Shown here in pieces: positions 24,083 through 55,524 of a stretch of DNA of 64,000 bases. This DNA is from an uncultured Pseudomonadota bacterium (GTDB taxonomy: Bacteria > Babelota > Babeliae > Babelales > RVW-14). The notes under the pieces were generated by a model, which was given only the letters and a program-made list of their open reading frames with translations, did not search any database and was not told the origin of the DNA. The position numbers and the translations under genes are program-made. Location: the NCBI GenBank assembly GCA_964446935.1, contig CAYUQI010000001.1, positions 4,320-68,319 on the forward strand, written 5' to 3'. Positions within the stretch are counted from its first letter, which is position 1; each line of letters opens with the position of its first letter.

Positions 24083-24173
24083 GCTCATAATCTACTGGTG
24101 CAAATAAAATATTGCTGATAGAGGCTCCCTCTGTTATCATCAAAACAACTTTGGTGAATAATCTACTTATCTG

Positions 24174-25901: not shown

Positions 25902-26004
25902 ATTAATATTTCTTTTCTCAAAAGTATTTACTTTACTTACTTTCCTTCGGTACCATACAAAAAGTTTGCAATAATACAAAGTTTTCAAGATGGAGTAGGC
26001 AGCA

Positions 26005-26589: not shown

Positions 26590-26908
26590 CAAATTGTTGG
26601 AGTTGGTTGTTGGGTGCAGTTGTTTTATACAAAGTATCTATCCTACCAGCCCTGACACATCTGCTACCATTCGTGACCCCTTTCAGTATTATTCACAACA
26701 TACATCAACTAAAAACACGGCATCTATAACTCTTGAAGGGGTTGTTTGCGTTGGTAATAAGCGAAGTGCTGCTATTATTGCTCATGGTCAAAAACGAGAA
26801 GTTGTTCAACGTGGTGAGTGCTTTGAAGGATATACGCTTATCGTATTGGAAAAAGATTTTGTTGTTGTGCAACGGGGAAAAATCAAGAAAAAGATTTTTA
26901 TCAAATGA
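26576..26908 (+). CDS. PilP-like lipoprotein
   Basis: 110 aa with a lipobox-like LVVGCSC, the RDPF motif, then the beta-sandwich pattern LEGVVCVGNKRSAAIIAHGQKREVVQRGECFEGYTLIVLEKDFVVV typical of PilP. Immediately upstream of the secretin. Confidence 0.6.
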   Translation: MKQCNKLLELVVGCSCFIQSIYPTSPDTSATIRDPFQYYSQHTSTKNTASITLEGVVCVGNKRSAAIIAHGQKREVVQRGECFEGYTLIVLEKDFVVVQRGKIKKKIFIK

Positions 26909-26929
26909 CTCTTATTGAGGGGGATTTTT

Positions 26930-38158: not shown

Positions 38159-40078
38159 ATGAGTGGAATTATAGCTTGTATTGGAAGCAAACCTTGCCGG
38201 CAGGCAATTCTTGAAGGTTTGTGTCATCTTGAATGTCGAGAATATGATTCTGCCGGTTTTGCTTGTATCGATAGCAATCATGGTCATATCAATTATCATA
38301 AAGAAGCGGGCGGCATAGTACCAATCAAGCGGCTTATTGAAGCCATACACTTTGATGGTTCTGTTGGCGTGGCTCATACTCGTTGGGCGACACATGGAAT
38401 TGTCGATGAACACAATGCCCATCCTCATTTCAATTGCAATAAAAGTATAGCGGTTGTACATAATGGAATTTTAGAGGCTCACGAAGAAATACGCCAAAAG
38501 CTTATTGATCAAGGGCATACCTTTACATCATCAACTGATACCGAGGTGGCGGCACATCTTTTGGAAGCACTTGTTGACCAATGTAAAGATTTAAAAAAAG
38601 CAATTATGGAATTGGTTAAGCGCCTTAAGGGTGCTTATGCTTTGGTTTTTTTATTGGAACAGTTACCAGACAAATTAATTGTTATTCGTCATCGATCTCC
38701 TATGAGCCTGGGTATTGGCAATGGCGAGGTTTATGCAGCATCTGATTTGGTTGCCTTTACTGACAAAACACGTAATGTCATTTTTATGCCAGATGATACG
38801 GTTGCCTTTTTATCAAAAGATGGTGTTGAATTATATGGATTTGATGGGCGATCGATCCCGTATTATGTCCAGGAAATTGATGAATCTTTTTTGACATCTG
38901 ACAAAGAAGGCTTTGAACATCATTTTCTTAAAGAGATATTAGAGCAGAAGCGTGCCATTAGCAGAACGATATCGTTTTATAAAGTTATTGGTAATTATAA
39001 TGAAGCAATTATCGATGATGATATTGCGCTTCAAAAAAACCATCTTCATGTTGATTACAGTGATGCCATTTGGCGACATGTTGGTCTTACTACCGATATG
39101 GTAAAAGATCTTGAACATATTCATTTGATTGGTGCTGGTACGTCATATCACGCATCGTGTATAGCTCGCTTCTTTTTTGAACACGTATGTAATATTCCAA
39201 CGTATGCTCATTTATCGTCTGAGTTTCGTTATGCACCTTTTTTCATTAAGCCAAATGGTGCGTATGTTGTTATATCACAGTCCGGTGAAACAGCTGATAC
39301 ACTAGAATCTTTGCGTTTGGTTAATTCTTTTGAACAACATACCATTGCGCTCACTAATGTTGCTTCAAGCAATATGGTTCGTGAGGCAAGTGGTTTTCTG
39401 CCAATGCAGGCAGGTCCAGAAATTTCTGGTGCATCAACGAAGGCTTTTTCCGCTCAATTAGCAAGTTTGTATTGGCTTGCGCACCGTATTGCACTTGATT
39501 GTGGTAAGGTAACGCCAGAACAAATGTTAGTAGCCGAAGAATCATTGTTTATTGCCGCTGAAATTTTGGAAGCAGCAATTGATGGTTATAAATTTAAAAT
39601 TGTACAAGAGCTTGCCCCGCATTATGCAACCTATGATCACTTTATTTTTTTGGGACGACACATATCCTATCCACTTGCTCAAGAAGCAGCGTTCAAAATT
39701 TCAGAAATTTCACATGTATTTGCTCAGTGTTATCCTGCAGGTGAATTACGAAATGGTCCTATTTCAATTATCAATGACAAAGCGCCCGTGGTTTTGTTCT
39801 CGGTGTTAGATGATTTGATTTATCAAAAGATGATTGAAAATGCACGTGACATTAAATCACGTAATGGTCACTTGATAGTCTTTGCATTTGAAGGGCAGCG
39901 TGAGCTTATTGAGCTAGCAGATTGTGTATTTGTATTACCTCGTGTTACTCCTATGCTGGCGCCACTTGCCATGACAGGGCTAATGCAATTTTTTATATAT
40001 CATATTTCACGTTGTCTTGGTCAGCCTATTGATAAACCGAGAGTTCAGCGTAAACAGGGTTCAATGGATCAGGTCTGA
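38159..40078 (+). CDS. GlmS-like protein (glutamine amidotransferase class II + 2x SIS) with substituted catalytic residues
   Basis: Full-length collinear with glutamine-fructose-6-phosphate aminotransferase (HTRWATHG, VVHNGI, SSTDTEV, SQSGETADTLESLR). It starts MSGIIACIG rather than MCGIVG, has GELRNGP rather than GELKHGP, and ends ...IDKPRVQRKQGSMDQV rather than ...KPRNLAK(S/A)VTVE. Confidence 0.8.
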   Translation: MSGIIACIGSKPCRQAILEGLCHLECREYDSAGFACIDSNHGHINYHKEAGGIVPIKRLIEAIHFDGSVGVAHTRWATHGIVDEHNAHPHFNCNKSIAVVHNGILEAHEEIRQKLIDQGHTFTSSTDTEVAAHLLEALVDQCKDLKKAIMELVKRLKGAYALVFLLEQLPDKLIVIRHRSPMSLGIGNGEVYAASDLVAFTDKTRNVIFMPDDTVAFLSKDGVELYGFDGRSIPYYVQEIDESFLTSDKEGFEHHFLKEILEQKRAISRTISFYKVIGNYNEAIIDDDIALQKNHLHVDYSDAIWRHVGLTTDMVKDLEHIHLIGAGTSYHASCIARFFFEHVCNIPTYAHLSSEFRYAPFFIKPNGAYVVISQSGETADTLESLRLVNSFEQHTIALTNVASSNMVREASGFLPMQAGPEISGASTKAFSAQLASLYWLAHRIALDCGKVTPEQMLVAEESLFIAAEILEAAIDGYKFKIVQELAPHYATYDHFIFLGRHISYPLAQEAAFKISEISHVFAQCYPAGELRNGPISIINDKAPVVLFSVLDDLIYQKMIENARDIKSRNGHLIVFAFEGQRELIELADCVFVLPRVTPMLAPLAMTGLMQFFIYHISRCLGQPIDKPRVQRKQGSMDQV

Positions 40079-40179: not shown

Positions 40180-41589
40180 ATGAATTTGGAAATCATTGTT
40201 GCATTTGGAGTATATTTTTCAATATTAGGGACTATTGGATTCTTCGCTTATCTGCGGAGTAGGAAGACGGCTGATTTTATTCTTGGTTCCCGTTCACTTA
40301 GTTATTGGGTTACGGCGCTTGCTGCACACGCAAGCGATATGAGCGGTTGGTTATTTATGGCGTTTCCTGCAGCTGTGTATGCTCATGGTTTGATTGAAGC
40401 ATGGACTGCTGTTGGCCTCGTGGCTTTTATGTATTTGAATTGGCGGTTTGTTGCTCCTAAATTGCGTGCACAGACTGAACGATATCATGCTTCCACATTG
40501 TCATCATTTTTGGAACAACGATGTAATGATCAAACAGGATTGATACGAAACATAAGTGCATTATTTTGTTTATTGTTTTTTATCTTTTATATTTCTGCAA
40601 ATTTTGTTGCTTTGGGCCATTTGTTTGAATCGATTTTTTCCATTAGTTATTCAACCGGCATTTTTTTAGGTGCGTTGGTTATTTTTTATATCTTGCTGGG
40701 AGGGTATCTCTCGATTGCATGGGTCGATTTTTTCCAAGGCATGTTTTTGCTCGCTATGATTATTCTGGTACCTGTTATTGCTTTTTTTACCCTCAATGGG
40801 ACTCAAGACATTATCCATGCCGCATCTACACGGCATGTTGTCCTTAGTGCTATACCTCGTTCATTAGGAGATTTTGCAACTGCTCTGTTGCTAGCTATTG
40901 GATGGGGACTTGGTTATTTTGGCCAGCCCCACATTGTGACCAAGTTTATGGGGATTAAGGATGTATCTGAAATGCGTAAGGCGCAGAGGCTTGGATTAAC
41001 GTGGCAAAGTTTAACACTTTTGGCTGCGATAGGAGTTGGGTTGGTTGGGCTTGCCTTTTTCCCCCAGGGGTTAGCAAATCCTGAGCTTATTTTTGTTACG
41101 ATGACCAAACAGTTATTCAGACCATTTTTTGCTGGGCTTATTTTGTGTGCAATTCTTGCTTCAGCGATCAATGTTATTGGTGCTCAAGTTCTTGCTTCCG
41201 CATCGATTTTGGCTGAGGACTTTTACAAACATATTATGAGGCGTAAGCCATCAGATGTTTTGAATCAACAGGTTCAATGGGCATCTCGTTTAAGTGTTGT
41301 TGCTATTTGTGTGCTGTCATTGTGGTTTGCATTGTACAATCAACAAAAAACAATTTATGAACTTGTTTATTATGCATGGGCGGGCCTTGGTTGTTCATTT
41401 GGTCCGATTTTGTTGTTGACTCTGCATAGAGATAATGTTCATACGAACGTGGCACTTGCGGGAATCACCATGGGCGGTGTTACCGCAGGACTTTGGCCTC
41501 TTGTTAATACAACCATACCTGCGATGATTGTTGGATTTGCTGTAAGCGTTGCGGCTATGGGTGTTGTAGCTATAGTTAACAGACGATAG
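40180..41589 (+). CDS. putP: sodium:solute symporter, PutP-like (sodium/proline symporter family)
   Basis: 469 aa with about 12 TM segments. The N-terminus ...[36 protein letters not shown] closely parallels E. coli PutP ([36 protein letters not shown]). Confidence 0.82.
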   Translation: [469 protein letters not shown]

Positions 41590-41593
41590 ACTG

Positions 41594-42955
41594 TTATTCT
41601 CCCTCTGGAAACAGCTGTAGAAGCTCATAAACATTCCGAAAACCAATCAGATTACATGAGGTTTTAACCTGTTGAAATTTGGAAACAAAAATTTGTTCAA
41701 GTCCAAATTTTTCGGCTTCTTTAATACATGAACCTATTTGATTGATGGCCTTAACGTTGCCAGTCAGGCTCAGTTCGCCGATAGCGACTGCTTTAGCGGG
41801 CAGGTTTTTTTGGAAATAACTGGAAAGCAACGCCAGAGCGATTCCGAGATCTGCTGATGATTCTTTTATTTTGAATCCCCCGCTGACTTTGAAAAAAATG
41901 TCATGTGCGCTAAAGCGAATATGGAGATATTTTTCTAAAATTGCGGCAACAAGTACAACTCGTTTGTAATCAAGCCCTGTTACCACGCGCTGCGGTACTC
42001 CAAACTTTGATTCAACAACGAGTGCTTGGAGCTCAATCAACAGTGGTCGCGTTCCCTCAAGGCAACAAATCATTGAGGCTCCAACAGAGCCTGATGCTTC
42101 GCTCAAAAATTGCTGATTAACGTTGGCTACCTCAACAAGTCCTTGTTCTTGCATTTCAAAGAAGCCAACTTCGTTAATGGTACCAAATCGGTTTTTAACT
42201 GATCGTAAGATGCGTGTATGCCAACGGTCTTCTGCTTGCAAGTAGAAGACCGCATCAACCATATGCTCAAGAACCTTTGGACCAGCCATTTCGCCTTCCT
42301 TGGTAATGTGGCCGGTGATAAGAACCGCGATGTTTTGTTCTTTAGCGAGTCGCATGAGATGAAATGCTGCCTCACGTAATTGAGCAATGGTGCCAGGGAT
42401 AGCATGAGATTGAAATGAGATATGACAATTTTGGATGGAATCGACGATTAACAAATCAGGTTTTTCCTGTTGTGCTGTTGCGACAATGGTTTCCAGGCAT
42501 GCTTCATCTGAAAATAAAAGATTATCATTTGCGACACTGAGGCGTTGTGCTCTACCTTTAACCTGTTCAAGTGATTCTTCTGACGAAAAATAAATGATTT
42601 TGTGTTTGGTAGCAAGAGCATTGGCGACTTGTAGTAACAGCGTTGATTTTCCTATGCCAGGATCGCCTGTTAAGATTATAAATGAACCGGGTAAGATACC
42701 CCCACCCAAGACGGTATCCCATTCACGAATATTACTGAGCATGCGAGCTTGAGGTGATAATTGAATGTTTGCGATAGGCGTCAAGACTGCACAATGGGCA
42801 TTGGCCTGTGGACCTTTGGTTGATGCAAATACGGCCGGCAAAGGTTTTTGTTCAATTAAGCTGTTCCACTCATTGCAGGTTGGGCAACAACCTACCCATT
42901 TAAGAGAGATGTAGCCACAATTGGAGCATGAGAATGATGCCTTGTTTTTGCTCAC
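41594..42955 (-). CDS. radA: DNA repair protein RadA/Sms
   Basis: N-terminal Zn finger FSCSNCGYISLKWVGCCPTCNEWNS, Walker A GDPGIGKST, the KNRFG motif (RSVKNRFGTINEVGFF) and a Lon-like C-terminal domain. Confidence 0.94.
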   Translation of the reverse strand: MSKNKASFSCSNCGYISLKWVGCCPTCNEWNSLIEQKPLPAVFASTKGPQANAHCAVLTPIANIQLSPQARMLSNIREWDTVLGGGILPGSFIILTGDPGIGKSTLLLQVANALATKHKIIYFSSEESLEQVKGRAQRLSVANDNLLFSDEACLETIVATAQQEKPDLLIVDSIQNCHISFQSHAIPGTIAQLREAAFHLMRLAKEQNIAVLITGHITKEGEMAGPKVLEHMVDAVFYLQAEDRWHTRILRSVKNRFGTINEVGFFEMQEQGLVEVANVNQQFLSEASGSVGASMICCLEGTRPLLIELQALVVESKFGVPQRVVTGLDYKRVVLVAAILEKYLHIRFSAHDIFFKVSGGFKIKESSADLGIALALLSSYFQKNLPAKAVAIGELSLTGNVKAINQIGSCIKEAEKFGLEQIFVSKFQQVKTSCNLIGFRNVYELLQLFPEGE

Positions 42956-43608
42956 AGTGCTTCAGCTGATGAGGTTTGTTTTGGGGCTGTTGCATATGGT
43001 GCATTCGATGTTTGTGGTTTATCAATCGAAAAACAACTACGGCAACGTGCCTCATAAAAATCAGATGCCCCTACGAGAATAATTGGATCATCGTATTTGG
43101 CTGGTTGACCGTTAATAAGCCGTTGGGTATGGTGAGCTTCTTTACCGCAGCATAAACAAATTGCTTTTAGTTTTATTACATCATCAGCTATTGCCATGAG
43201 TCGTGGTATGACACCAAATGGTTCTCCGCGGAAATCAAGGTCAAGTCCGGCGGCAATAACATGTTTGCCTGTAGCAACAAGTGTCTCAATGACGTTGATG
43301 ATTGGATTGCTAAAAAATTGAACCTCATCAATACCAATAACATCAATATTTGATTGCGCGAGCTCTAATATTTTCTCAAATCCTGAAGCATTATCCGAAA
43401 TTACAAAAGCAAAACGTTCTTTGCCTTCATGTGAAACAATGCAGGTAGGAACTTGATTATAACGTTTGTCGATATGATGTTTGATGGTGAGAACGCGTTG
43501 TTTTGCATATTCAGCACGACGCAGTCGACGCATAAGTTCTTCTGTTTTACCAGAGAACATTGAACCACAAACAACCTCTAATCGCCCCGGTTTTATATCT
43601 TTAGTCAT
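42952..43608 (-). CDS. tdk: thymidine kinase (with about 25 aa of low-complexity C-terminal tail)
   Basis: LEVVCGSMFSGKTEELMRRLRRA (P-loop), GIDEVQFF, and the C-terminal Zn-binding CLCCGKEAHHTQR...CRSC. Confidence 0.92.
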   Translation of the reverse strand: MTKDIKPGRLEVVCGSMFSGKTEELMRRLRRAEYAKQRVLTIKHHIDKRYNQVPTCIVSHEGKERFAFVISDNASGFEKILELAQSNIDVIGIDEVQFFSNPIINVIETLVATGKHVIAAGLDLDFRGEPFGVIPRLMAIADDVIKLKAICLCCGKEAHHTQRLINGQPAKYDDPIILVGASDFYEARCRSCFSIDKPQTSNAPYATAPKQTSSAEAL

Positions 43609-43852
43609 GGTACCACCCTCGTAAACATGGATATTTTATGTAATGCCAAATTACAGTATACCATGGTTTGATCAAGACCTTAATTTGTGGTTCTAAGAAA
43701 CAGATTTTTGCGCCATGAATTTATTTGCCTTCGCCAGGAGTGCAAATATCACGTCGAAGTTTTCGCGAAGTAGGTGGCTATACTGCACAGGTTGGCTGGC
43801 GGACAGGCTGACAAAATGAAGTCTCGGCTCAATGACATATTGATTGCATTTG

Positions 43853-45103
43853 CTAATGAGCGTTTTGGGCTGCAGGTGGTGGCGCAGGTCGACGTAAGAC
43901 CAGTCGTCCCAATATACCTGTTTGTGCCCCAATTCCTTCTGCAACACCTTGCCCAACTTGTCGTCCAATAGCCTTAAGATCAGGATTTGGTTGTTGGTTT
44001 CCAGGATCATTTCCCGCTGTATTTGCCATGCCATTTACAGCTGCCCGCAACGCCCCTTCTGTTAAAGAATTTAATTGGTCTTGAGTTGGCATATTAAGAA
44101 TGCCTGGTGGGAGATTGTCTCGCAAACTGGAAACAAATTTATTAAAGCGATCTTGATCAGCGAGTATCTCATTGAGCAATTCAGGCGTGATATGCTGTAC
44201 AACACTTTTTAGTTTTTCGCGGTTGGCAGGATCATCAAGGCCATTGATAAAGGCATTGACGGCACCACGGCCAGCGCTTTCACCAAGTGGCTCAACAATA
44301 GCAGTCCAAGCATTACTAAACCATTTTTTAATACCACCCCAGTTTGGTAAAACATATTTATAAACAATAATGCTAATGGCAAAAATAATAACCGAGATAA
44401 TAACAACTTTTTTGAGTTTACTGGATTGAACCAGTGGCTCCTTGGCTCCATAGGTTTCAAGCAGCATAATAAAAGATGTAATCTTTTTTTCATCTATGAC
44501 AGGTCCAAATTGTTTGTTGATGCTAAGCATTTCACGTTTAATTTTGTCAATTGAGTGTGCCAGTGTTTCTCGTTTTTGTTCATAACTCAAAAAGCTTTCA
44601 TTAATCATGTAGATCATGATAAACAGCTTACTCAGTGCCGATTGGAATGGCTTGAGCACAATACTCTTGTTTATTGCTTTTAATGAATAAAAGGTTTGGC
44701 AGTGTTCAAGTATTTTAGCTACATATTCTTTTTTTAGATTCATGCTGCAAATAAATTGATGAAATTTTAAAAAATAAAATTTATTAAGGCGTCGCAATAA
44801 GTAGATACTATCGGCATCATCTTGTTGCTCAAGCCATTCTATTAATTTAATGATGATGGAACCTTCTTTTTGAACGTCAGGAAACAGCGAAGCATTAATA
44901 ATAAGATTGTTGTTGTATGATAATGGAAAGTGTCCATTTTCAACTAATTGATAATATCTGTTTTCAAATGAATCGTAAGCCTGTTGTATGCGTGTGTCCA
45001 GGCCTTCTTCAAGTAAGTTTGTATTAATAGGACTGCTTGCAAAACATGGTAAAAAAAAGTTTATGTATGCTGCAATCGTTACAATCCATGGAAGGAACTT
45101 CAT
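43853..45103 (-). CDS. hypothetical membrane/secreted protein (orphan)
   Basis: 416 aa. Signal-like N-terminus MKFLPWIVTIAAYINFFLPCFASS, one central TM KKVVIISVIIFAISIIVYKYVL, and a Gly/Ala/Pro/Gln-rich tail ...GNDPGNQQPNPD...RRPAPPPAAQNAH. I recognised no family motif. Confidence 0.55.
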   Translation of the reverse strand: MKFLPWIVTIAAYINFFLPCFASSPINTNLLEEGLDTRIQQAYDSFENRYYQLVENGHFPLSYNNNLIINASLFPDVQKEGSIIIKLIEWLEQQDDADSIYLLRRLNKFYFLKFHQFICSMNLKKEYVAKILEHCQTFYSLKAINKSIVLKPFQSALSKLFIMIYMINESFLSYEQKRETLAHSIDKIKREMLSINKQFGPVIDEKKITSFIMLLETYGAKEPLVQSSKLKKVVIISVIIFAISIIVYKYVLPNWGGIKKWFSNAWTAIVEPLGESAGRGAVNAFINGLDDPANREKLKSVVQHITPELLNEILADQDRFNKFVSSLRDNLPPGILNMPTQDQLNSLTEGALRAAVNGMANTAGNDPGNQQPNPDLKAIGRQVGQGVAEGIGAQTGILGRLVLRRPAPPPAAQNAH

Positions 45104-45353: not shown

Positions 45354-45396
45354 AAAGGCTGGGAATCTAATAATGATTCTCGGCCTTTATTTTATT
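45354..45396 (+). terminator. Hairpin with U-rich tail that is fully paired only in the + strand orientation
   Basis: aaaGGCTGGGAATC-taataat-GATTCTCGGCCttt-attttatt. All 11 core pairs form on + strand RNA (two are G-U). On minus-strand RNA those two positions become A-C / C-A mismatches and no U tail follows. Confidence 0.45.
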
Positions 45397-47257
45397 CAAC
45401 CGTAACGGCTTTTGCCAAATTACGTGGTTTATCGATGGGGCGTCCTAACTCCCTGGTGATGTAATAGATAAACAGTTGCATAACGCCCGTCATGGCCAAC
45501 GGTGCTAAAAGCGGATGTATAGTAGGGATCACAAAGGCACAATCAGCCATTTCAATGAGCTCTGTTTGATGTTCGAAGGCAAAGATAATCAAGTGCCCAT
45601 TACGAGCTTTAACCTCTTGGGCATTAGCAACGAGTTTAGTGTAAATTACCTCATCGAGTACTGAGAATATAACGACAGGTGTTTTGGCATCAACGAGGGC
45701 AATAGGGCCGTGTTTAAGTTCCCCCGATGGATAACATTGTGAAAAAATATACGAAATTTCTTTGAGTTTGAGAGCAGCTTCCATGGCAAAAGGATAGCTG
45801 ATATGCCGTCCTAAAAATATGAAGCGGTCATAATGAGCATAGCGTGGTGCATATTTGGTCGCAATATCAAATTTATAGGTTTCGAGTGTTGATTCCAGAA
45901 TCTCTGCAACTAATAGTAATTGTTCTTCGGCATAATGGAATTGTTGTAACGAAAGTTGTTTTCTTTCTGCTGCCATGCGATGTGCGAGCCAAAAAAGAAT
46001 AGCCATTTGGGCTGAAAAAGCTTTGGTTGATGCCACAGAAATTTCAGGGCCAGCTTGCATAAGCAATGAGCCCTTAGCTTCACGGACGATTGAGCTTGCA
46101 GGAACATTTGAAATAGCAATGGTGTGTTGATTGAATGAATTGATCAAACGCATTGCTTCAAGCGTGTCAGCTGTTTCGCCGGATTGCGAAATCAACATGA
46201 AAAGGCTATTTTCTTCAGGAAAAAACGGCATGTAGCGAAATTCTGATGCCAAATAAACACGTGTTGGTATTTTGCAAACAGCTTCAAAGAAAAATTGCGC
46301 TATGCGGGCTGCGTGCCATGATGTGCCAGCGGCAATGAGGCTTAGATGTCGAAGATTCTGTACCTGTTGTACCGACAAACCCATCTGGCGCCAGAGCGCT
46401 GTCTGCTCATTTGAAGTAGTATCAAGTTGTTTGAGTGACGTGACCGTACGGTTAATGGCCTGTTTTTGTTCATAAATTTCTTTGAGCATGAAATGTTCAA
46501 ACCCTTCTTTTTCTACATTCAAAAGAGTTTGATCGATAGGTGTCATAGTATATGGCAACGGGGTGCCATTAAACGAATACAGCTCTACGCTCTCACGTGT
46601 TACTAATGCAATGCTGCTATCTGGCATAAAAAGTGCGTTCGATGTTTTATCTGCAAATGCAAGTACATCCGAGGCGACAAAGTTTTCATGAGCGCCAACT
46701 CCAATAACCATGGGTGATTTGTGGCGGACAACCATGAGCATGTGTGGATATTCTTTACTGAGGGCGATGAAGGCAAAAGCTCCTTTAATGGTGTGTACGA
46801 GATCAATTAAAGCTTGTTTTGGATTGTTTGGATGCTTCTTAAGGGAATCGCTCAAAAGGTGTGCTATGACTTCGGTATCCGTTTGCGATGTGAAGGTATG
46901 TCCTTTGTTGATAAGTTCTTGACGTGTCCGTGTATGTTCTTCAACAATGCCGTTGTGGACAATAGCAAGCGTTTTTTTGCAATTAAAATGGGGGTGCGTA
47001 TTATTTAAAGTAACCGCTCCATGAGTTGCCCATCGTGTGTGGCCTATACCAACAGGGCCATCCTTTTCAATTGACATTGAAAGGTTTTTGATTGGTTCGT
47101 TTGTGCCACATTCTTTTTTCACATACAAGGAGTTTGTATCAGAAGTGATACAAGTAAAGCCAGCAGAATCATAACCACGATATTCAAGCCGAGATAAGCC
47201 TTCTGAAATAACTTTCTTACTTGAGCCAGAACCGATATATCCAACAATACCGCACAT
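45392..47257 (-). CDS. glmS: glutamine-fructose-6-phosphate aminotransferase (isomerizing), canonical
   Basis: 621 aa with MCGIVGYIGS (Cys1 nucleophile), HTRWATHG, SQSGETADTLEAMR, KLKEISYIFSQCYPSGELKHGPIALVD, and the C-terminal tail IDKPRNLAKAVTVE. Confidence 0.96.
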   Translation of the reverse strand: MCGIVGYIGSGSSKKVISEGLSRLEYRGYDSAGFTCITSDTNSLYVKKECGTNEPIKNLSMSIEKDGPVGIGHTRWATHGAVTLNNTHPHFNCKKTLAIVHNGIVEEHTRTRQELINKGHTFTSQTDTEVIAHLLSDSLKKHPNNPKQALIDLVHTIKGAFAFIALSKEYPHMLMVVRHKSPMVIGVGAHENFVASDVLAFADKTSNALFMPDSSIALVTRESVELYSFNGTPLPYTMTPIDQTLLNVEKEGFEHFMLKEIYEQKQAINRTVTSLKQLDTTSNEQTALWRQMGLSVQQVQNLRHLSLIAAGTSWHAARIAQFFFEAVCKIPTRVYLASEFRYMPFFPEENSLFMLISQSGETADTLEAMRLINSFNQHTIAISNVPASSIVREAKGSLLMQAGPEISVASTKAFSAQMAILFWLAHRMAAERKQLSLQQFHYAEEQLLLVAEILESTLETYKFDIATKYAPRYAHYDRFIFLGRHISYPFAMEAALKLKEISYIFSQCYPSGELKHGPIALVDAKTPVVIFSVLDEVIYTKLVANAQEVKARNGHLIIFAFEHQTELIEMADCAFVIPTIHPLLAPLAMTGVMQLFIYYITRELGRPIDKPRNLAKAVTVE

Positions 47258-47430
47258 GAAAAACCTTTCTACATCGCAAGAGTTTAAAACACTAGTATGC
47301 CAGGGGTTGCGTTCTTATTCAAAATAAAGGCATAAAATCTAATGAAGATGGATGAATATAACCGTTTGTGCGGTCTTAGAGCGTGGTTTGTTTGGTTTTT
47401 ACATCATGCCAATAGCGTGTTATAACTATC

Positions 47431-47569
47431 TTTTGTCACCCTGAACTCCTAAGTGAGTTTGCGGTAGTAAATGTTTTCCTTTGTCATCCTGAATTAATTT
47501 CAGGATCAACATTCCAATGTTATTATTCCGAAATAGCATGGATGCTGAAATGCGTTTAGCATGACAAAA
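47431..47569. repeat. cluster of short hairpin repeat units (REP/MITE-like) at the left edge of the glycan locus
   Basis: The unit TTTGTCAT(C/G)CT(G/A)AA-5 nt-TTTCAG(G/C)AT appears at 47480-47507 on the + strand (hairpin ATCCTGAA-ttaat-TTCAGGAT). It appears inverted at 47539-47568 (ATGCTGAAa-tgcg-TTTAGCAT...gacaaa). A degenerate third copy TTTTGTCACCCTGAA lies at 47431-47445. Confidence 0.6.
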
Positions 47570-47627
47570 AACGGAAGCCATTTATTTGTTGACACTATGG
47601 ATACGTTTGAGCAATGAAAGATTAACG

Positions 47628-48569
47628 ATGGCAACAAAGCGTGTTTTAGTAACCGGGGGTTCTGGTTTTTTGGGAAGTCATTTATGCAAAGCTTTGGTGA
47701 TGCAAGGACATCAGGTAACGGTGCTTGATAACTTGTATACCGGTAATCTTAACAATCTTGCATCAATTCGAAACAATCCCAATTTTACTTTCAAAAAACA
47801 TGATGTTATTGAGCCATTTGACATGGACGTTGATTGGATTTTTAATTTTGCCTGTCCAGCATCGCCACCGCATTATCAAAAGAATTCAATTTTTACTACA
47901 AAAACAAGCGTTTTTGGCGCGCTTAACATGCTTGAGCTTGCGCGCAAATATAATGCTCGCATTATGCAAGCATCAACGAGTGAGGTATACGGCAATCCAT
48001 TGGTGCATCCGCAGACAGAACGATACGTTGGCAATGTTAACCCTATTGGTCCACGTGCTTGTTATGACGAGGGTAAGCGTTGCGCTGAATCATTATTCTT
48101 TGATTACAAGCGTATGTATAATGTTGATATTAAAGTGATTAGAATTTTTAATACGTATGGCCCATATATGGATCCTTATGATGGTCGAGTGGTGAGCAAC
48201 TTTATCGTTCAGGCATTAAAGCGTGAGCCATTGACTATGTATGGTGATGGAACACAAACACGGTCTTTTTGTTACGTTGATGATTTAATAGCTGGTATCC
48301 TGGCCATGATGAATTCTGATGCAACCCTTACTGGACCAGTAAATTTAGGAAATCCAACAGAATTCACCTTGCTTGATTTAGCTAAAAAAATCCAAACATT
48401 GATTGGTAGTCGGTTGCCTATTCTGTTTAAGCCTTTGCCTCAAGATGATCCAACACAACGGAAACCTGATATTTCTTTAGCAAAAAAAATGTTGGGATGG
48501 GAGCCAAAAGTTAATTTGGAAACAGGGTTACGACATACCATTGATTATTTTACGCAGCTGCTATCATGA
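47628..48569 (+). CDS. uxs: UDP-glucuronate decarboxylase (UDP-xylose synthase)-like extended SDR
   Basis: ORF (TTG at 47586) trimmed to [23 protein letters not shown] (ATG at 47628). Motifs [24 protein letters not shown], and [12 protein letters not shown] (the YxxxK of the UXS/ArnA-decarboxylase subgroup). Confidence 0.8.
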
Positions 48570-49732
48570 AAGTTGTTATTTCAGCCGGTGGGCGTTTTCA
48601 TGCTCATCAGTTAGCCAATCAGCTGATCAAACGAAATGCACTTGGTGCTTTTTTTACGTTCGATTACACCAGCGTTGATAGAAAAAAAATTCCACCGCAC
48701 TATGTTCATTGCATTAAACGATGCAAAGTGATGAATGATGCCTTTGTTGCTCTGCAGCTTGGACGGGTATGGGATAAATCTCGTTTTAATGTCTTTAAAG
48801 ATACTATGTTTGATCGCTGTGTAAGTAAACAATTGAATTGGGTTGAGCCCTTCGATTTGTTTGTTGGATGGGCACATTATTCTGGTCATTCGATACCTGC
48901 TGCTCGTAAGGCTGGTGCGCGAATAATCATTGAATCAGGGTCGTGTCATATTCAGGTTCAACAAAAACTTCTACAACAAGAATATGAACGATGGGGTGTG
49001 CCATTTCAGCCAATTCATGCACAAACAGTAGAAAAGATGATTAATGAATATAATCAGGCTGATTACATTATGACGCTTTCATCATTTGCTCATGATAGTT
49101 TTATTACACAAGGTTTTGTACCAACAAAGGTTTTGAAAGTTCCATGTGGCATGAATGTTGAGTATTTTTCAGATGATAAAAATTATATTCAAAAGAAAGA
49201 TAAATTCCGTGTTATTTTTGTTGGGTTGGTAACGTTACGCAAAGGAATCCATTACCTTTTGCAAGCGTGGCATGAGTTGCATTTACCGCTTAAGGATACT
49301 GAATTGGTGATTGTTGGTGCATTACAGAAAGATTTTGCTGCTATCAAGCAAAACTTACCAATTGATTCAAATATTATTTTTGTAGGCCCTGTTTCACGTG
49401 AGCGGCTTAAAGCGTTGTATCAGCAATCATCACTTTTCGTTTTGCCTTCTATTGAGGACGGTTTTGGTATGGTTATTGGGGAAGCAATGGCAAGCAAACT
49501 TCCTGTTGTATGCACTACCAATACGGCTGCGCCAGAAATTATTATCGATGGTTTGCATGGTTTTTTAGTGCCTCCACAATCCATTGATATGCTTGCTGAA
49601 AAAATTCAATGGTGTTATCAACATCAAGAGGAGGCGTCAGAAATGGGGTTGTTGGGTTATGAACGTATACAAGATTTTACATGGGATGTGTATGGACAAA
49701 ATGTGTATAACGTGTACGAGGGTTTACTTTGA
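48566..49732 (+). CDS. glycosyltransferase, GT-B fold (GT4-like)
   Basis: C-terminal [39 protein letters not shown] (E-x7-E type motif). ATGA overlap with uxs. Confidence 0.82.
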
Positions 49733-50754
49733 ATAGCATAAAAAAAATATTACTTGTTGGGGCCTTTTCTCCAGATCCCTCTATTTATACCTACGCCCAA
49801 TCATTTGTATCTGCTTTATCCCTGTTGGGCTTCCATGTGATGCCTTTTAATTATCGGAAGAAAGCTAGTTGGTGGGGAACTCTAAATGCATGGTGGTGTA
49901 ATAATGCACTTATACGTGCGGTAACAACATATAAACCAGACCTTGTGTTTATTATTAAGGGAGAATTACTTACGCCTGAGACCTTGTGTTGTATTAAACA
50001 AATCTGTGGATCAAGACTTATTAATTTTTATCCCGATAATCCATTTGTGGTGTGGAATGGGAATTCAAATGAACATGTTCTTGCATCATTACCAATCTAT
50101 GATTGTTGGCTATCTTGGTCGAAAATGTTAGAGCCTGTTCTTATTTCGGCGGGGTGTAAGCATGTTTGTTACTTCCCATTTGCTTATGATGAAACATTGT
50201 TTAATAAGTCTCTATCCATAACAAATAATGATTACGCTCAATATGCATCGGATGTATGTTTTGTGGGGACGTGGGAACCTGAGCGAGAGGCATGGTTAAA
50301 TGATCTTATAACTTGTATGCCTAGCATATCATTGGCTGTGTGGGGTAATGACTGGGTAACCAAATGTCATAATGCAGCAATCAAAAAAATACTTCGTGGC
50401 AGTGCTATTTACGGGGATTCAATGATTAAGGCTTTTCGTTTATCAAAAATTGTGCTTAATTTTATACGTGTTCAAAATTTGGCGGCGCATAACATGCGGA
50501 CGTTAGAAGTGCCTGCCAGTGGGGCTTTTTTGCTAACGCAGCGTACACAAGATCAGGCTGAAACATTATTTAAGGAGGGTGAAAGTATAGCCTGTTTTGC
50601 TGACAGCAAAGAACTTGTTAATAAAATTGATTTTTATTTGCATAATGCGAATGAACGTATCAGAATTGCCAATAACGGTTTTGCTCGAGCTGGAATGTTC
50701 ACCTTAACCAAGCAGCTTCAGCAGTATTTTAATCAATGCTGCTTGTATTTGTAA
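49729..50754 (+). CDS. CgeB-like glycosyltransferase family protein
   Basis: The pattern DVCFVGTWEPEREAWL...NMRTLEVPASGAFLLTQRT...FKEGESIACFADSKELVNKIDFYLHNANERIRIANNG resembles CgeB/DUF3880-type GT-B proteins. This is from my recollection, not a search. Confidence 0.55.
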   Translation: MNSIKKILLVGAFSPDPSIYTYAQSFVSALSLLGFHVMPFNYRKKASWWGTLNAWWCNNALIRAVTTYKPDLVFIIKGELLTPETLCCIKQICGSRLINFYPDNPFVVWNGNSNEHVLASLPIYDCWLSWSKMLEPVLISAGCKHVCYFPFAYDETLFNKSLSITNNDYAQYASDVCFVGTWEPEREAWLNDLITCMPSISLAVWGNDWVTKCHNAAIKKILRGSAIYGDSMIKAFRLSKIVLNFIRVQNLAAHNMRTLEVPASGAFLLTQRTQDQAETLFKEGESIACFADSKELVNKIDFYLHNANERIRIANNGFARAGMFTLTKQLQQYFNQCCLYL

Positions 50755-50764
50755 GGATTATGCT

Positions 50765-51436
50765 ATGCACACAGGAGATACGGTTAATAAACTTTCGGAT
50801 ATTAAAATTCGATATATCAACGGTCATTTGAAGGGCCGAGATATTCTCGATGTTGGGTCTGGTTATGCCTATTATAGTGAATGGCTTGCAACTAACAATT
50901 CCAATTTAAGAGTTATTGCACTTGATCAATTAGATCTTATGAGTTGTAAAGGAGTTGAATTTGTTAAAGCAGATCTTGAGCAACCAATCCCTTTCCCGCG
51001 TGACTATTTTGACACGATCTTGGTATTTGATGTTATTGAACATATTGTTCACGAAGAATCATTGCTTGATGAACTTCATAGGATATGCAGACCCTCAGGG
51101 GTAATCATTGGGTCGGTACCACATAGTGATGACTATTTTTTGCCCGCGTATAATTTAACGTTTTACAACCGAACAGATATGACACATAAACGTTATTATG
51201 CTATTGATACTCTCAAACGATTACTGAATAATCATGGTTTTGATGTTGTGACCGTTGATGCACAAGGAATAGTTCCTCCCAATCTTTTTGCCGAGTTTTT
51301 TCCTCGGTTGATCAAACCGTTGGTAAAAAAGGGGATAGGGCTTTTGCGCCGCATGCGGGTTATTAATCCTTATATATTGTCTTCAGATTTGTTTTTTGTT
51401 GCTCAGAAATCAACGCATTATAAAGGTATAAAGTGA
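50765..51436 (+). CDS. class I SAM-dependent methyltransferase
   Basis: Motif I ILDVGSGYAYYSEWL, then ILVFDVIEHIVHEESLLDELHRICRPSGVIIGSVP. Confidence 0.8.
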   Translation: MHTGDTVNKLSDIKIRYINGHLKGRDILDVGSGYAYYSEWLATNNSNLRVIALDQLDLMSCKGVEFVKADLEQPIPFPRDYFDTILVFDVIEHIVHEESLLDELHRICRPSGVIIGSVPHSDDYFLPAYNLTFYNRTDMTHKRYYAIDTLKRLLNNHGFDVVTVDAQGIVPPNLFAEFFPRLIKPLVKKGIGLLRRMRVINPYILSSDLFFVAQKSTHYKGIK

Positions 51437-52716
51437 TGGTGCCTTTTAAAAAACCTAAAATAGCAATTCTTACAGTGCGTAATTCGTACAATTACGGTGG
51501 TATTTTATCAACATTAAAAGTTACCTATCAATTTTGTCAGAACTATTTCGAACCGAAGGTTTTCTTTTTGGGATTTGATCATGAAATTGCAACGAGTCTT
51601 CGAAGACTAAAGTTTACATCGTCAGTTAAACCGTTATCGTATTTCGGGATGAATTGTATTGAGGTAGGAGCACGGTGGGCTTTTTGGGAGCCGGGGCACT
51701 ATTCTTTTACGTATCGCCACTGGAAAACATTACTTAAAGATTATGATTATTTTTTTGTTGTGAGTGGGACTTGTATGGCTGCTCATCCTCTTATGCTTTT
51801 ACATAAAAAATTTACCATGTGGATTGGAACGCCATACAATGAGGATCGTGCCGAGCGAGTAAAAGAACTTGATGGGGTTCGTTATGTCCTTAATCAACTT
51901 GCTCATCAGAAAATGAATGCTATTGAAAAAAAGATACTTTCACGATCAAGTTTTACGTGGGCAATAAGTACGTATGCTAAATCAAAGTTTGAGTATATTC
52001 TTGGGCATACGAGAGATACGATGGTATTGTGTGGGTATCCGATTGATTGTTCCAAGGTTTCAGTTGTTAAAAAAGGGGGATCTGAAAAAATTATTATAGC
52101 CGTCGGGCGTTTTAGTGATCCACGCAAGAACATTGATATGCTCTTTCGTGTTTTTGACAAGCTTTATCAACAAATGTCCGATATTAAATTGTATATTGTT
52201 GGCAAGAAGCCTTTGGACGAAAAACTTACGCAGTTCTCATCGTTACCATCATTTCAGAATATCATTTTTACGGGACAAATTGCTGGGGATGATCTGTTTT
52301 CGCTTTATAGAAGAGCGCATCTTATGCTTATTACGTCCTATCAAGAGGGGTTAGGGATTGTTGGACTGGAAGCACTTTTGCATGGAACCCCCGTGGTAGC
52401 AACCGATTGTGGCGGAACCCGCGATTATGTGGTGAACAATATATCTGGCTTTTTGGTTCCTATTAACAATGATGATGAAATGGTTGCACATGCCTATGCT
52501 GTTTTGTCTGATGATCAATTACGTGAACGGCTTGCACAAGGGGGGCGGCAATTGGTAGAAGAAATCTTTGCTATTGGTAAGATTTATGCTTTGTTTAAAC
52601 GAGGACTTGTGGTGGCGTATCCAGAATTACAAAAATGGTTTGAAGAGCGTGATCGTATGACCAAACTGTTACATGAGCGAAAAACAAATGTTTATTTAGC
52701 CCAGGATATTGTATGA
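51433..52716 (+). CDS. glycosyltransferase, GT4-like
   Basis: SYQEGLGIVGLEALLHGTPVVATDCGGTRDYVVNNISGFLV. Confidence 0.82.
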   Translation: MMVPFKKPKIAILTVRNSYNYGGILSTLKVTYQFCQNYFEPKVFFLGFDHEIATSLRRLKFTSSVKPLSYFGMNCIEVGARWAFWEPGHYSFTYRHWKTLLKDYDYFFVVSGTCMAAHPLMLLHKKFTMWIGTPYNEDRAERVKELDGVRYVLNQLAHQKMNAIEKKILSRSSFTWAISTYAKSKFEYILGHTRDTMVLCGYPIDCSKVSVVKKGGSEKIIIAVGRFSDPRKNIDMLFRVFDKLYQQMSDIKLYIVGKKPLDEKLTQFSSLPSFQNIIFTGQIAGDDLFSLYRRAHLMLITSYQEGLGIVGLEALLHGTPVVATDCGGTRDYVVNNISGFLVPINNDDEMVAHAYAVLSDDQLRERLAQGGRQLVEEIFAIGKIYALFKRGLVVAYPELQKWFEERDRMTKLLHERKTNVYLAQDIV

Positions 52717-53864
52717 GGGTGCTTGTTGTAAGTCACACATATATTTCTCCAATTAATCGTGATAAATGGAAGATGTTAGCGCAGCGGCATCCAGATGTTT
52801 CCTTAATGGTTATTTTTCCTAAAAGATGGCCAACGTGCTTGTTTCAACATAAAGCTCAGATAAGCCAAAATGAACTATCTGATAATTGTTCTTTCATGGC
52901 TCTTGATTCATTTAAAGAGGGTAATGAATTGCTGTATAGGTATTCAGCAAAACAACTGTTTGGGGTGATGAAAACATTTAGGCCAAACATTATTCATGTT
53001 GAACAGGGTGGCAATGCATTCAGTTTTTTTCAGGTGAATTTTTTTGCCAAGTTACTGAGGCTTAAGGCAAAAAGTGTTTTTTTTACTTGGATTAATTGGC
53101 AACATACTTTTTCGTTAAAAGGCAAAATGTTGCTCAAGCCAATTGAAAAGATAAACATGGCGTGCTCGCATGGCGCTATTGCTGGGAATCATGATGCTGA
53201 AAAGATTCTTCGTGCCAAGGGGTTTGCTAAGCCTGTTTTGGTGTTGCCGCAATTAGGAATAAACCGAATGCTTTTTGCTATGCGAGATCAGTCCCCAGCA
53301 TATAAGCGATCATATAAATACGTTGCTTTTATTGGCCGTATTACTGAAGAAAAAGGGGTTTTTTATTTGGCCAGAGCTTTTTTATCATTGGCCAATCAAT
53401 TTCCTGATTGGAAGTTATTGTTTGTTGGAACAGGGCCGGCGTTTCAACGATTGAAAAGTTTTGTAGCCGGCAAAAGAATGCTGAATCGTGTTGAAATGTA
53501 TCAATCTGTGCCGCATGAAACAGTTGCATCCATGATTCGATATGTTGATATTTTGGTTTTGCCTTCATATGAAACAGCAACATGGAGAGAACAGTTTGGA
53601 CATATTTTAATTGAAGCGATGGCAAGTGGGGTTTCGATTATTGGTAGTGATGCGGGTGAAATCCCTTTTGTTATTGGAGATGCTGGGTTAATTTTTAAGC
53701 AACGCAATGAAGCAGAACTTCTTGCGCAATTAAAAACTTTGATGCAAGATGATAAATTAAGAAAAAAACTTGGAATGATAGGATATCAACGAGCTCATTC
53801 ACACTACTCGCATGAAGCAATTGCCGATAAAACATATGCCTTCTGGCAGCAGCTTGGTGGGTAG
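52713..53864 (+). CDS. glycosyltransferase, GT4-like
   Basis: PSYETATWREQFGHILIEAMASGVSIIGSDAGEIPFVIGDAGLIF. Confidence 0.8.
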   Translation: MRVLVVSHTYISPINRDKWKMLAQRHPDVSLMVIFPKRWPTCLFQHKAQISQNELSDNCSFMALDSFKEGNELLYRYSAKQLFGVMKTFRPNIIHVEQGGNAFSFFQVNFFAKLLRLKAKSVFFTWINWQHTFSLKGKMLLKPIEKINMACSHGAIAGNHDAEKILRAKGFAKPVLVLPQLGINRMLFAMRDQSPAYKRSYKYVAFIGRITEEKGVFYLARAFLSLANQFPDWKLLFVGTGPAFQRLKSFVAGKRMLNRVEMYQSVPHETVASMIRYVDILVLPSYETATWREQFGHILIEAMASGVSIIGSDAGEIPFVIGDAGLIFKQRNEAELLAQLKTLMQDDKLRKKLGMIGYQRAHSHYSHEAIADKTYAFWQQLGG

Positions 53865-53886
53865 AAGACACAAAAAAGGAGAAAGC

Positions 53887-55278
53887 ATGATGACGGTAGC
53901 TGTTGTTGGTGCTGGCTATGTTGGATTGGTTACAGGGGCTTGTTTTGCCTCTAAGGGCTTCAGAGTTATTATCATAGAAAATAATCACGAAAAAATTGAT
54001 TTGTTGTTAGCGGGTAAAATTCCGTTTTATGAACCTGGTCTTGATACGCTTGTTATGGAAGGGATCAAGAACAAAAATCTTATCTTTGTGCCAACTATAA
54101 AAGAGGGACTTGCTTATCAGCCGGAAGTTCTTTTTTCATGTGTTGGTACCCCATCACTTCCTTCAGGGGCTGCTGATTTGTCCTACGTTGAGCAGGTAGC
54201 TCGAGAAATTGGTCGCTGTGCGAATAATTATTTGTTGGTTGTGAATAAATCGACAGTGCCTGTTGGTACCGCACGTAAGGTAAAAAGTAGTATTTATGAA
54301 CATATGGCGCAACGTGGGATTGCTGTTCAGTGTGATGTTGCCTCCAATCCTGAATTTTTAAAAGAGGGTAGCGCTGTTGATGATTTTTTATATCCAGATC
54401 GCGTTGTCGTTGGTGTTGATTCTGATCAAGCAGCGACACTTCTTCATAAACTTTATAAACCTTTTATCACTAATGAATCTCAATTTATATGCATGAATAT
54501 TGAATCTGCAGAACTTACCAAATATGCATCAAACGTTATGCTTGCCATGCGTATTAGCTTCATAAATCAATTGGCGCAGTTGGCAGATAAAGTTGGTGCT
54601 GATATTAAAGAAGTAAAAGAAGGAATGGCAAAAGATGCTCGAATCGGGCCACATTTCCTCAATGCTGGTATTGGATACGGTGGCAGTTGTTTTCCTAAGG
54701 ATGTTAAAGCATTGATAACAATGGGCAATGATTGTCACTTTCCTATGACGCTTGCACAAGAAATTGATAATATTAACACCTTTCAGCGCGTATGGTTTGT
54801 TAATCGTATTATTGCACATTACGGCCCTCGTTTAGCAGGAAAAACAGTTGGTTTATGGGGGCTTGCATTCAAACCAGAGACTGATGACATTCGATGTGCA
54901 CCTTCGATTGATGTCATTGATGAATTGCTGAGCCATAAAGCACATATTGTCGCCTATGATCCAGTAGCTCATGCCAATATTGCTGCTCGATATGGCGGAT
55001 CTGTTAGTTTTGCAACATCAGCGCATGAGGTGCTTGCTGCTGCAGATTTTCTTGTTATTTTGACTGAATGGAAAACATTTTTACAATGTAAGCCTCATGA
55101 TTTTGCTCAATTAGCTGACAAAACTGTGTTTGATGGGCGCAATTGTTTTGAACCGTCTTTGATGCATGCTGCTGGTATAACATATGTGTGTGTTGGACGT
55201 AATACCTCTATTTGCGATGAACATGTTCGTCAAACAAATGTAAAGAAACAAAAACAACCCTATGAAGCGGCTCTGTAA
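53887..55278 (+). CDS. ugd: UDP-glucose 6-dehydrogenase
   Basis: ORF trimmed to MMTVAVVGAGYVGLVTGACFA (ATG at 53887 after an AGGAG RBS). Motifs NPEFLKEGSAVDDFLYPDRVVVG, and GIGYGGSCFPKDV with the catalytic Cys. Confidence 0.93.
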   Translation: MMTVAVVGAGYVGLVTGACFASKGFRVIIIENNHEKIDLLLAGKIPFYEPGLDTLVMEGIKNKNLIFVPTIKEGLAYQPEVLFSCVGTPSLPSGAADLSYVEQVAREIGRCANNYLLVVNKSTVPVGTARKVKSSIYEHMAQRGIAVQCDVASNPEFLKEGSAVDDFLYPDRVVVGVDSDQAATLLHKLYKPFITNESQFICMNIESAELTKYASNVMLAMRISFINQLAQLADKVGADIKEVKEGMAKDARIGPHFLNAGIGYGGSCFPKDVKALITMGNDCHFPMTLAQEIDNINTFQRVWFVNRIIAHYGPRLAGKTVGLWGLAFKPETDDIRCAPSIDVIDELLSHKAHIVAYDPVAHANIAARYGGSVSFATSAHEVLAAADFLVILTEWKTFLQCKPHDFAQLADKTVFDGRNCFEPSLMHAAGITYVCVGRNTSICDEHVRQTNVKKQKQPYEAAL

Positions 55279-55309
55279 ATATTGGTTAATTTGAAATTGT
55301 GGATAAGAG

Positions 55310-55475
55310 ATCCGTTCGTGGTGAGGAGCAATACGTAGTATTGCATCTCGAACCATGAACACCATATAACAGTTTTTTTGTTGGGGATAACCTCATGTTT
55401 TTAAATAAAATATTTTTTATGAGTTCATGGTTCGAGACACTCGGCCTATGGCCTCGTTCCTCGCCACGAACGGAT
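55310..55475. repeat. 166-bp nested inverted-repeat (MITE-like palindromic) element in the ugd-GT intergenic gap
   Basis: Outer arms: ATCCGTTCGTGGTGAGGAG (55310-55328) versus its reverse complement TTCCTCGCCACGAACGGAT (55457-55475), 17 of 19 positions matching. Inner arms: TCTCGAACCATGAAC (55346-55360) versus GTTCATGGTTCGAGA (55423-55437), perfect. AT-rich centre; no ORF of its own. Confidence 0.65.
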
Positions 55476-55524
55476 TACAAGAATTACACAAATTTCCAGG
55501 CTATGCTTGAGGTTGATTTGCTTT

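Follow-up and report, generated by a model that had tools for sequence, protein, structure and literature searches.

A syntenic glmS gene of Dependentiae with substituted catalytic residues: a candidate retained GlmS pseudoenzyme

The stretch of DNA considered here (the window) comprises 64,000 nucleotides of contig CAYUQI010000001.1 (positions 4,320 to 68,319; assembly GCA_964446935.1) and contains two genes for GlmS, the glutamine-dependent glucosamine-6-phosphate (GlcN-6-P) synthase. One, at 45392..47257 on the minus strand, is canonical: it encodes 621 amino acids, with the motifs MCGIVG and GELKHGP and the tail KPRNLAKAVTVE, and scores 659.5 bits against TIGR01135. The other, at 38159..40078 on the plus strand (‘glmS-B’), encodes 639 amino acids that form a class-II amidotransferase (N-terminal nucleophile, Ntn) domain and two SIS domains, and is degenerate at positions that hardly vary elsewhere in the family. 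A first-pass annotation of the window, made from its letters, had recognized both copies and the canonical character of the one at 45392-47257, but took the two to be collinear, whereas they lie on opposite strands. Below, we describe the degenerate gene, its relatives and its likely history, and then consider what its product may do. All sequences used are metagenome assemblies, and all trees are neighbour-joining (NJ) trees.

The degenerate open reading frame (ORF) begins MSGIIACIG (ATG AGT GGA). An in-frame TAG lies at 38132-38134, 27 nucleotides upstream of the ATG, and there is no other plausible start; the syntenic orthologues that were compared begin at the equivalent position with ATG TGT/TGC GGA, locus L087 (see below) being the exception. 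The protein matches GATase_6/7 and two SIS domains in Pfam and passes the curated GlmS models TIGR01135 (560.7 bits, cut-off 418.05) and NF001484 (580.1 bits, cut-off 381), so that annotation pipelines would name it GlmS, as they have done for its relatives. Its AlphaFold2 (AF2) model has a mean predicted local distance difference test score (pLDDT) of 86.9, with low confidence only in the linker, the insert and the tail, and its domains superpose on 1xff (TM-score 0.94) and on 7dnr and 4s1w (0.90-0.91); the predicted fold is intact. The G+C content of the gene, overall and at third codon positions, is ordinary for the window. The extra segment at the domain junction (38996..39049, residues ~280-297, predicted to be disordered) is indeed present, as the first-pass annotation noted, but is not a peculiarity of this copy: the spacer between EIYEQ and GTS is typically 63-64 residues in Dependentiae GlmS, most of which are 628-639 amino acids long, and is 63 in the degenerate protein; E. 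coli GlmS has 41 residues here, and the canonical window copy and its two relatives have 39-46. A paralogue-specific insert was therefore rejected.

Residues were mapped by a HMMER alignment to the E. coli GlmS chains 4amv and 3ooj, together with a MAFFT alignment of 122 sequences, and are given in E. coli numbering. In GlmS, Cys1 is the sole catalytic residue of the glutaminase, and Glu488, His504 and Lys603 are those of the isomerase (PMC9272926). The degenerate protein has Ser at the Cys1 position (AGT, 38162..38164; TGT/TGC in the syntenic orthologues L001-L005) and Asn at the His504 position (AAT in the motif GELRNGP, 39752..39754), where Cys and His, respectively, are each found in 119 of 121 relatives; both substitutions had been proposed in the first pass, and the alignments bear out the homology of the two positions. 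The Asn lies in a diverged His-loop (GELRNGPISIIN versus GELKHGPIALID). The C-tail, KPRVQRKQGSMDQV (40034..40078, pLDDT <50), has eight of the nine positions 600-608 substituted and reads V-Q-R-K-Q-G-S-M-D plus QV in place of the conserved lid N-L-A-K-S-V-T-V-E, so the lid is not conserved. The earlier claim that this tail had been replaced and Lys603 lost does not hold. The tail is codon-collinear with canonical tails to its end, which excludes a frameshift as its source; it arose by point substitutions, with a mutated stop codon adding two residues, and Lys632 (40052-40054) aligns with Lys603 (KPRVQRK versus KPRNLAK). The isomerase triad is thus broken at one position only, Glu488 and the Lys being kept while His504 is Asn.

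By contrast, every residue of the glutamine pocket and the phosphate loop that was compared is canonical, and the motifs HTRWATHG, HNG, TDTE and SQSGETADT are kept, as the first-pass annotation had it. Arg73, Trp74, Thr76, His77, His86, Asn98, Gly99 and Asp123 of the glutamine pocket are identical to E. coli, and Arg26, Thr302, Ser303, Ser347, Gln348, Ser349, Thr352, Lys485 and Glu488 are canonical too. Remodelling has affected the R26 loop, the 480-492 helix (with substitutions in 484-491), the His-loop and the C-tail lid, at positions ≥95% invariant in relatives. Because Cys1 and His504 are replaced and the lid-forming tail is scrambled, the protein, judged by its sequence, cannot perform glutamine-dependent GlcN-6-P synthesis, in agreement with the earlier suggestion that it is not an ordinary synthase; it probably still binds glutamine and hexose phosphate.

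The distribution of the substitutions is far from even. At the approximately 200 columns that are ≥95% invariant in canonical sequences, the degenerate window protein has 30 changes, as against 0-2 in its canonical sisters. Segments involved in catalysis and domain coupling (1-7, 22-30, 480-492, 498-512 and 596-608) account for most of these, with 22 of 45 invariant positions changed, compared with 2 of 36 in ligand-binding segments (70-88, 96-101, 121-126, 300-306, 345-354 and 397-403) and 6 of 118 at all other positions. This is a concentration of ~9-fold (Fisher p = 8e-11), with 94-95% of the other invariant positions kept, and the enrichment of catalytic segments is seen in all eight degenerate proteins described below. 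The acceleration is modest: GlmS identity equals gyrB identity in pairs of species that both have a canonical protein (mean difference -0.1 points, n=10), and is 10.0 points lower than gyrB identity if one partner is degenerate and 13.8 points lower if both are. The identity of the degenerate window protein to its orthologues, 63-66%, is similar to that of the SSF symporter (66-69%) and of tadA (60-63%) in the same genomes.

The nearest homologues are all from Dependentiae (TM6, Babeliales-type metagenome-assembled genomes), and the source of the window is a parasitic Dependentiae bacterium of a UASB124-like lineage; contig LDIV01000001 is part of the TM6 population genome UASB124, a reduced genome of 1.29 Mb (PMC4776705). 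The degenerate gene is flanked by two conserved blocks, gyrB(-), a tadA-like deaminase, a dksA-like gene, a tRNA and rpsI upstream (33902..38099), and an SSF (PutP-like) symporter(+), radA(-), thymidine kinase(-) and a hypothetical gene(-) downstream (40180..45103). The order gyrB-tadA-dksA-rpsI-glmS-SSF-radA-thymidine kinase-hypothetical is found in relatives whose glmS is canonical (L003/P0003, L004/P0031, L090, L091 and L092) and equally in those whose glmS is degenerate (L001/P0006, L002/P0004, L005/P0009, L087/P0090, L103/P0096, L104/P0021 and the contig of P0002). This conservation identifies the ORF at 38159-40078 as the positional orthologue of the ancestral glmS. It is therefore the vertically inherited, syntenic gene, and not the ‘second’ copy that it was first taken for; the canonical gene is the displaced one. 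For the same reason, the neighbouring symporter, which the first-pass annotation offered as a hint to function, is inherited synteny: rpsI-glmS-SSF is also the order where glmS is canonical, and a functional link between the degenerate gene and the Na+-solute symporter was rejected. A metagenome scan anchored on the symporter returned 15 loci and no new degenerate genes. One close relative, L088 (Ga0172379_10000551; SSF 68%, radA 76% and thymidine kinase 79% identical to the window), has two extra genes between SSF and radA, and the gyrB-tadA-dksA-rpsI-glmS block was not seen within 6 kb 5′ of its SSF gene; either synteny is broken here or the locus has lost its glmS.

The canonical copy has all its catalytic residues, differs at only 3 of 199 invariant positions, and is presumed from its sequence to be a working GlcN-6-P synthase. 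It is 55% identical to the degenerate protein. In a search of 5.8 billion proteins its only close relatives were P0081 and P0059 (66-68% identity), which share a uppS-gpsA-glmS context. Each of these occurs with a degenerate protein: P0081 and P0006 are on one 806-kb UASB124 contig, and P0059 and P0002 come from the same JGI sample, 3300075153. The gene trees of the two copies mirror each other, (WIN_can,(P0081,P0059)) for the canonical and (P0001,(P0006,P0002)) for the degenerate proteins, P0001 being that of the window. Together with the co-occurrence of the copies, this implies that the two-copy state is older than the split of the window, UASB124 and JGI 3300075153 lineages. A foreign origin of the canonical copy was considered and rejected, as its best matches are all from Dependentiae (60-68%, against ~41% outside the phylum) and its composition is ordinary. 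A scan of a genome collection with the canonical copy gave no close relatives, although that scan also missed UASB124. The gene lies at the edge of a glycan-synthesis block (47586..57560, plus strand) with an epimerase/dehydratase, six glycosyltransferase-type genes, two methyltransferases and a UDP-sugar dehydrogenase; relatives carry kdsB-murA-atpG where the window has canonical glmS and this block. The composition of the whole of 45392-57560 is not foreign-looking.

Strong deviation at family-invariant positions marks out eight protein clusters, P0001, P0002, P0004, P0006, P0009, P0021, P0090 and P0096, which have 11-36 deviations each, the median being 2. All eight genes lie at rpsI-glmS-SSF and all are intact ORFs of 636-639 amino acids; a profile search built from the eight proteins found no further members. 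They are not equally degenerate. In P0006 and P0002 the tails are altered but no catalytic residue is lost; P0004 carries K603H, P0090 carries H504T and K603E, and P0096 carries E488S and lacks Lys603; several members of the clade keep Cys1 and the full glutamine pocket. The tail, the His-loop and the 399-401 loop differ in every degenerate lineage, and the tails have no new consensus, while at the sugar loop, 398-400, members of the clade have a remodelling in common (SVA to SGA or AGS). Within the window clade of five members, G27E, G70A, M252L/F, V399G/A, A400S, E445D, Y491H/G, A508E/S and tail changes are each present in four or five of the five, which indicates that remodelling began in their common ancestor. 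Sporadic changes at positions that are otherwise invariant are also seen in other Dependentiae proteins outside the degenerate group, namely P0064 (K603M and K503Q), P0061 (tail RPRHSAKPVTIE) and P0052 (H77T); erosion of GlmS may be recurrent in Dependentiae.

The search for orthologues with Ser1 and Asn504 that the first pass had proposed brought to light no such clade, but one independent lineage with Ser1 and Thr504, that of L087 (JGI Ga0620600_0000038). The gene call for P0090 begins at an internal ATG, and there is an in-frame ATG 12 nucleotides upstream (L087:9989-10000); the corrected N-terminus, MSGIMAYAGSKPC, begins MSGIM and thus carries Ser (AGT) where Cys1 would be, through the same codon change as in the window. 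In a species tree of gyrB, tadA, dksA, rpsI, SSF, radA and thymidine kinase (2196 columns, NJ, 500 bootstraps) the window, L001, L002 and L005 form a group (90%) whose sister is the canonical L003, and L087 pairs with L092, which is canonical, at 100%. If only the variable columns of GlmS are compared, the nearest sequences to P0090 and P0096 are each other and P0016 (the L092 protein), and P0090 is only 37% identical to P0001. The NJ gene tree joins all eight degenerate genes at 74% bootstrap, but the species tree and the variable sites place L087 and P0096 with canonical P0016; a single origin was therefore rejected. GlmS must have degenerated on two or more occasions, and the 74% grouping owes something to convergence or long-branch attraction. 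P0001 and P0090 nevertheless have 21 changed invariant positions in common (hypergeometric p = 1e-8), an overlap that stays significant within catalytic and non-catalytic positions alike. At eight of the 21 the replacement is identical (C1S, R22H, Q311R, F478L, Y491H, L509I, D511N and E535D).

Canonical E. coli GlmS (PDB 1jxa, 2j6h and 4amv) is the obvious point of comparison: the degenerate protein has the same two-domain architecture and fold, scores above threshold with both TIGR01135 and NF001484, and keeps the glutamine pocket and phosphate loop together with Lys485, Glu488 and a Lys at 603; it differs in Ser1, Asn504 and the substituted R26 loop, 484-491 helix, His-loop and C-tail. The best structural match to the AF2 model is the E. 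coli C1A mutant (PDB 3ooj), which folds and was crystallized with glucose-6-phosphate and glutamate, so that a GlmS without its nucleophile can still hold both ligands. That protein is, however, an engineered single mutant with its synthase site and tail intact, whereas the degenerate protein is natural and also lacks His504 and the lid. The SIS-only relatives (the deaminases NagB-II and GlmD, the deglycases FrlB and FraB, and AgaS) share homology with the isomerase half, and their substrates are amino-sugar or ketoamine phosphates, but they lack the glutaminase domain, which is complete in the degenerate protein. Other class-II proteins have lost Cys1: beta-lactam synthetase and carbapenam synthetase, relatives of asparagine synthetase B, keep an N-terminal glutaminase-type domain without it. 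Their second domain is active and neofunctionalized, whereas in the degenerate GlmS the second active site is damaged as well. Viral pseudo-glutamine-amidotransferases (vGATs), which derive from FGARAT, belong to a different amidotransferase lineage, are proteins of eukaryotic viruses and have no sugar-phosphate domain. They are described as enzymatically inactive and as acting by partnering an active cellular amidotransferase, and thus offer a precedent for a regulatory pseudo-amidotransferase (PMC7605207).

We consider it about an even proposition that the degenerate GlmS is a retained, folded, ligand-binding pseudoenzyme and not a dying gene. Essential catalytic residues are lost and the predicted fold is kept, and the earlier suggestion of a pseudoenzyme or sensor is consistent with selective loss of catalysis alongside intact binding pockets. 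The argument for retention as a folded protein is drawn from the site-specific pattern of loss, the intact ORFs, the modest acceleration and the parallel trajectory in L087. The alternative most directly opposed to it is that the gene is a redundant relic in slow decay, dispensable since the canonical copy took over, drifting towards a pseudogene, without a role and simply not yet interrupted. We regard this as rather unlikely. In its favour, constraint is clearly relaxed, with excess substitutions in all conservation classes (roughly 5-14% per site) on top of the 30 changed invariant positions, a state that a long and slow decay with weak selection against truncated products might have left; the tail, His-loop and 399-401 loop differ from lineage to lineage without a new consensus in the tail; tails or Lys603 have been lost sporadically elsewhere in the phylum (P0064 and P0061); and a working copy is present. 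As regards retention, the segment boundaries behind the ~9-fold concentration were set from residue roles in the literature, but after the list of changes was known. P0006 and P0002 may still be enzymes, in which case long retention of the clade would be no proof that the dead state is old, and the identical replacements in P0001 and P0090 are all conservative and look to be one nucleotide step away, so that residual structural constraint alone could explain them. The check for a second glmS covered three of the eight degenerate lineages (window, UASB124 and JGI 3300075153, with L002, L005, L087, L103 and L104 outside it), and the protein searches rank full-length matches first and would miss fragmented or deleted versions of glmS. 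Against decay stand the eight intact genes. In simulations of unconstrained mutation of an orthologous coding sequence (indels excluded), 19%, 3% and 0% of runs remained stop-free at 30, 60 and 110 amino acid changes, and the divergence of the eight ORFs appears far below the neutral expectation; the closest degenerate pair is P0002/P0006, and the other pairs (63-67% protein identity) are judged too diverged for meaningful synonymous divergence. Frameshift, premature stop, truncation and uniform loss of constraint, the marks of a pseudogene, are not seen. Decay also fits poorly with the concentration of changes in catalytic segments, with the change of the same positions in two independent lineages, and with a degenerate state that spans a family-level radiation (gyrB 76-79% identity) of genomes of ~1.3 Mb; reduced genomes such as the 1.29-Mb UASB124 are expected to lose useless DNA.

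It might also be suggested that the protein is an enzyme with altered chemistry, either an NH3-dependent aminating or deaminating sugar-phosphate isomerase that uses Glu488, Lys485 and Lys632 on a substrate whose ring need not be opened with the help of His, or a Ser-Ntn amidohydrolase with Ser1 as nucleophile. This we think improbable. It would make sense of the retained Glu488, Lys485, Lys at 603 and phosphate loop, of the shared remodelling of the 398-400 sugar loop, which could mean a new substrate, of the Cys1 and full glutamine pocket kept by several clade members, and of the twofold appearance of Ser at position 1; other Ntn hydrolases use Ser competently as their nucleophile, and removal of Met should expose it. 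Cys-to-Ser mutants of class-II amidotransferases are, however, essentially glutaminase-dead, the tail has no conserved new sequence and is predicted to be disordered, and the alternative catalytic set is itself not conserved, Glu488 being lost in P0096 and Lys603 in P0004, P0090 and P0096. The FrlB-like deglycase proposed in the first pass finds no support, nor does a deaminase like NagB-II: against the NagB-II, GlmD, FrlB and AgaS-type NCBIfam models the protein scores 87.8, 52.6, 25.2 and 22.8 bits (cut-offs 430, 580, 430 and 529), and deglycases depend on a Glu/His pair of which it lacks the His. That the whole pattern is an artefact, with the Ser codon made by a sequencing or assembly error or with the true start elsewhere, is hardly credible. 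A single base separates AGT from TGT and AAT from CAT, and the window was assembled from a metagenome, but the error envisaged in the first pass would concern one codon, whereas 30 family-invariant positions differ and cluster in functional elements; the start is homologous to that of syntenic orthologues, with the in-frame stop 27 nucleotides upstream; an identical protein sequence occurs on two contigs; and the same Ser codon is present in the independent L087 lineage.

If the degenerate GlmS is indeed a retained pseudoenzyme, its history and mode of action might be envisaged as follows. The ancestral glmS would have lost GlcN-6-P synthase catalysis while a canonical second glmS was present. 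Removal of Met would expose Ser1, and glutamine would be bound but not hydrolysed at a useful rate, as in C1S and C1A mutants of class-II amidotransferases; hexose-6-phosphate would likewise still be bound, without ring opening or lid closure, leaving a non-catalytic, ligand-binding or regulatory protein. Dimerization through the SIS domains is probably kept, either with itself or with canonical GlmS. His504 is supplied to each sugar site by the neighbouring GlmS subunit, and in a heterodimer the degenerate protein would donate Asn504 into its partner's site and so damp the activity of that site. In its fullest form the proposal is that Dependentiae have at least twice turned the ancestral GlmS into a conserved non-catalytic binder of glutamine and hexose phosphate, with Ser for Cys both times, which senses the status of nitrogen or of sugar-phosphates and regulates the supply of envelope precursors, possibly via poisoned heterodimers with canonical GlmS. 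We advance this as speculation that is doubtful as a whole.

Other features near the two genes can be noted briefly. An Rfam scan near both glmS copies found only tRNAs, and neither a glmS ribozyme nor another riboswitch; a scan for promoters and terminators around the degenerate gene gave nothing beyond the shuffle expectation. The best promoter-like site of the region (TTGACA-17-TAGACT) comes directly after a terminator-like hairpin just 5′ of rpsI (37545-37601), and no terminator-like site was found between rpsI and the degenerate glmS, so that the two may be co-transcribed; both are weak results of a consensus scan. Approximately 7 kb upstream of the degenerate gene, the ORF at 28650-30989 on the minus strand (779 amino acids) scores 188.8 bits (cut-off 384) against PRK02122, a ‘glucosamine-6-phosphate deaminase-like protein’ of the NagB-LmbE type, with no Pfam match at E ≤ 0.001, and is read as a divergent homologue of amino-sugar enzymes. 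The region 22245-28648 contains kdsD (SIS and CBS domains) and, after it, genes of type IV pilus/type II secretion type that encode a prepilin peptidase, a PilB/GspE-type ATPase and a secretin; in L005 a pair of kdsD and prepilin peptidase genes lies directly upstream of the gyrB block. Three ORFs of 416-445 amino acids at 31184-33829 and 43853-45103 belong to no significant Pfam family, and the two of them that were scanned against NCBIfam (31184-32443 being outside that scan) had no match. The 416-residue member of this set is syntenic but only 34-40% identical among relatives, and hence fast-evolving.

As an essential enzyme that is universally conserved, GlmS has been studied heavily and is a drug target. 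Searches of a paper library did not find a natural full-length GlmS homologue that lacks both the nucleophile and the ring-opening His, and gave nothing relevant on a GlmS pseudoenzyme or on glmS in Dependentiae. If the fullest form of the proposal above is true, these proteins would be the first natural family of full-length GlmS pseudoenzymes. If they are functional, a two-site, channel-coupled amidotransferase would have been recycled into a binding or regulatory module, and the positions conserved for catalysis could be told from those conserved for folding; two independent lineages have released largely the same positions. There is also a practical consequence, in that the degenerate forms are annotated as active GlmS; in Dependentiae genomes that have only such a form, synthesis of UDP-N-acetylglucosamine would be wrongly inferred.

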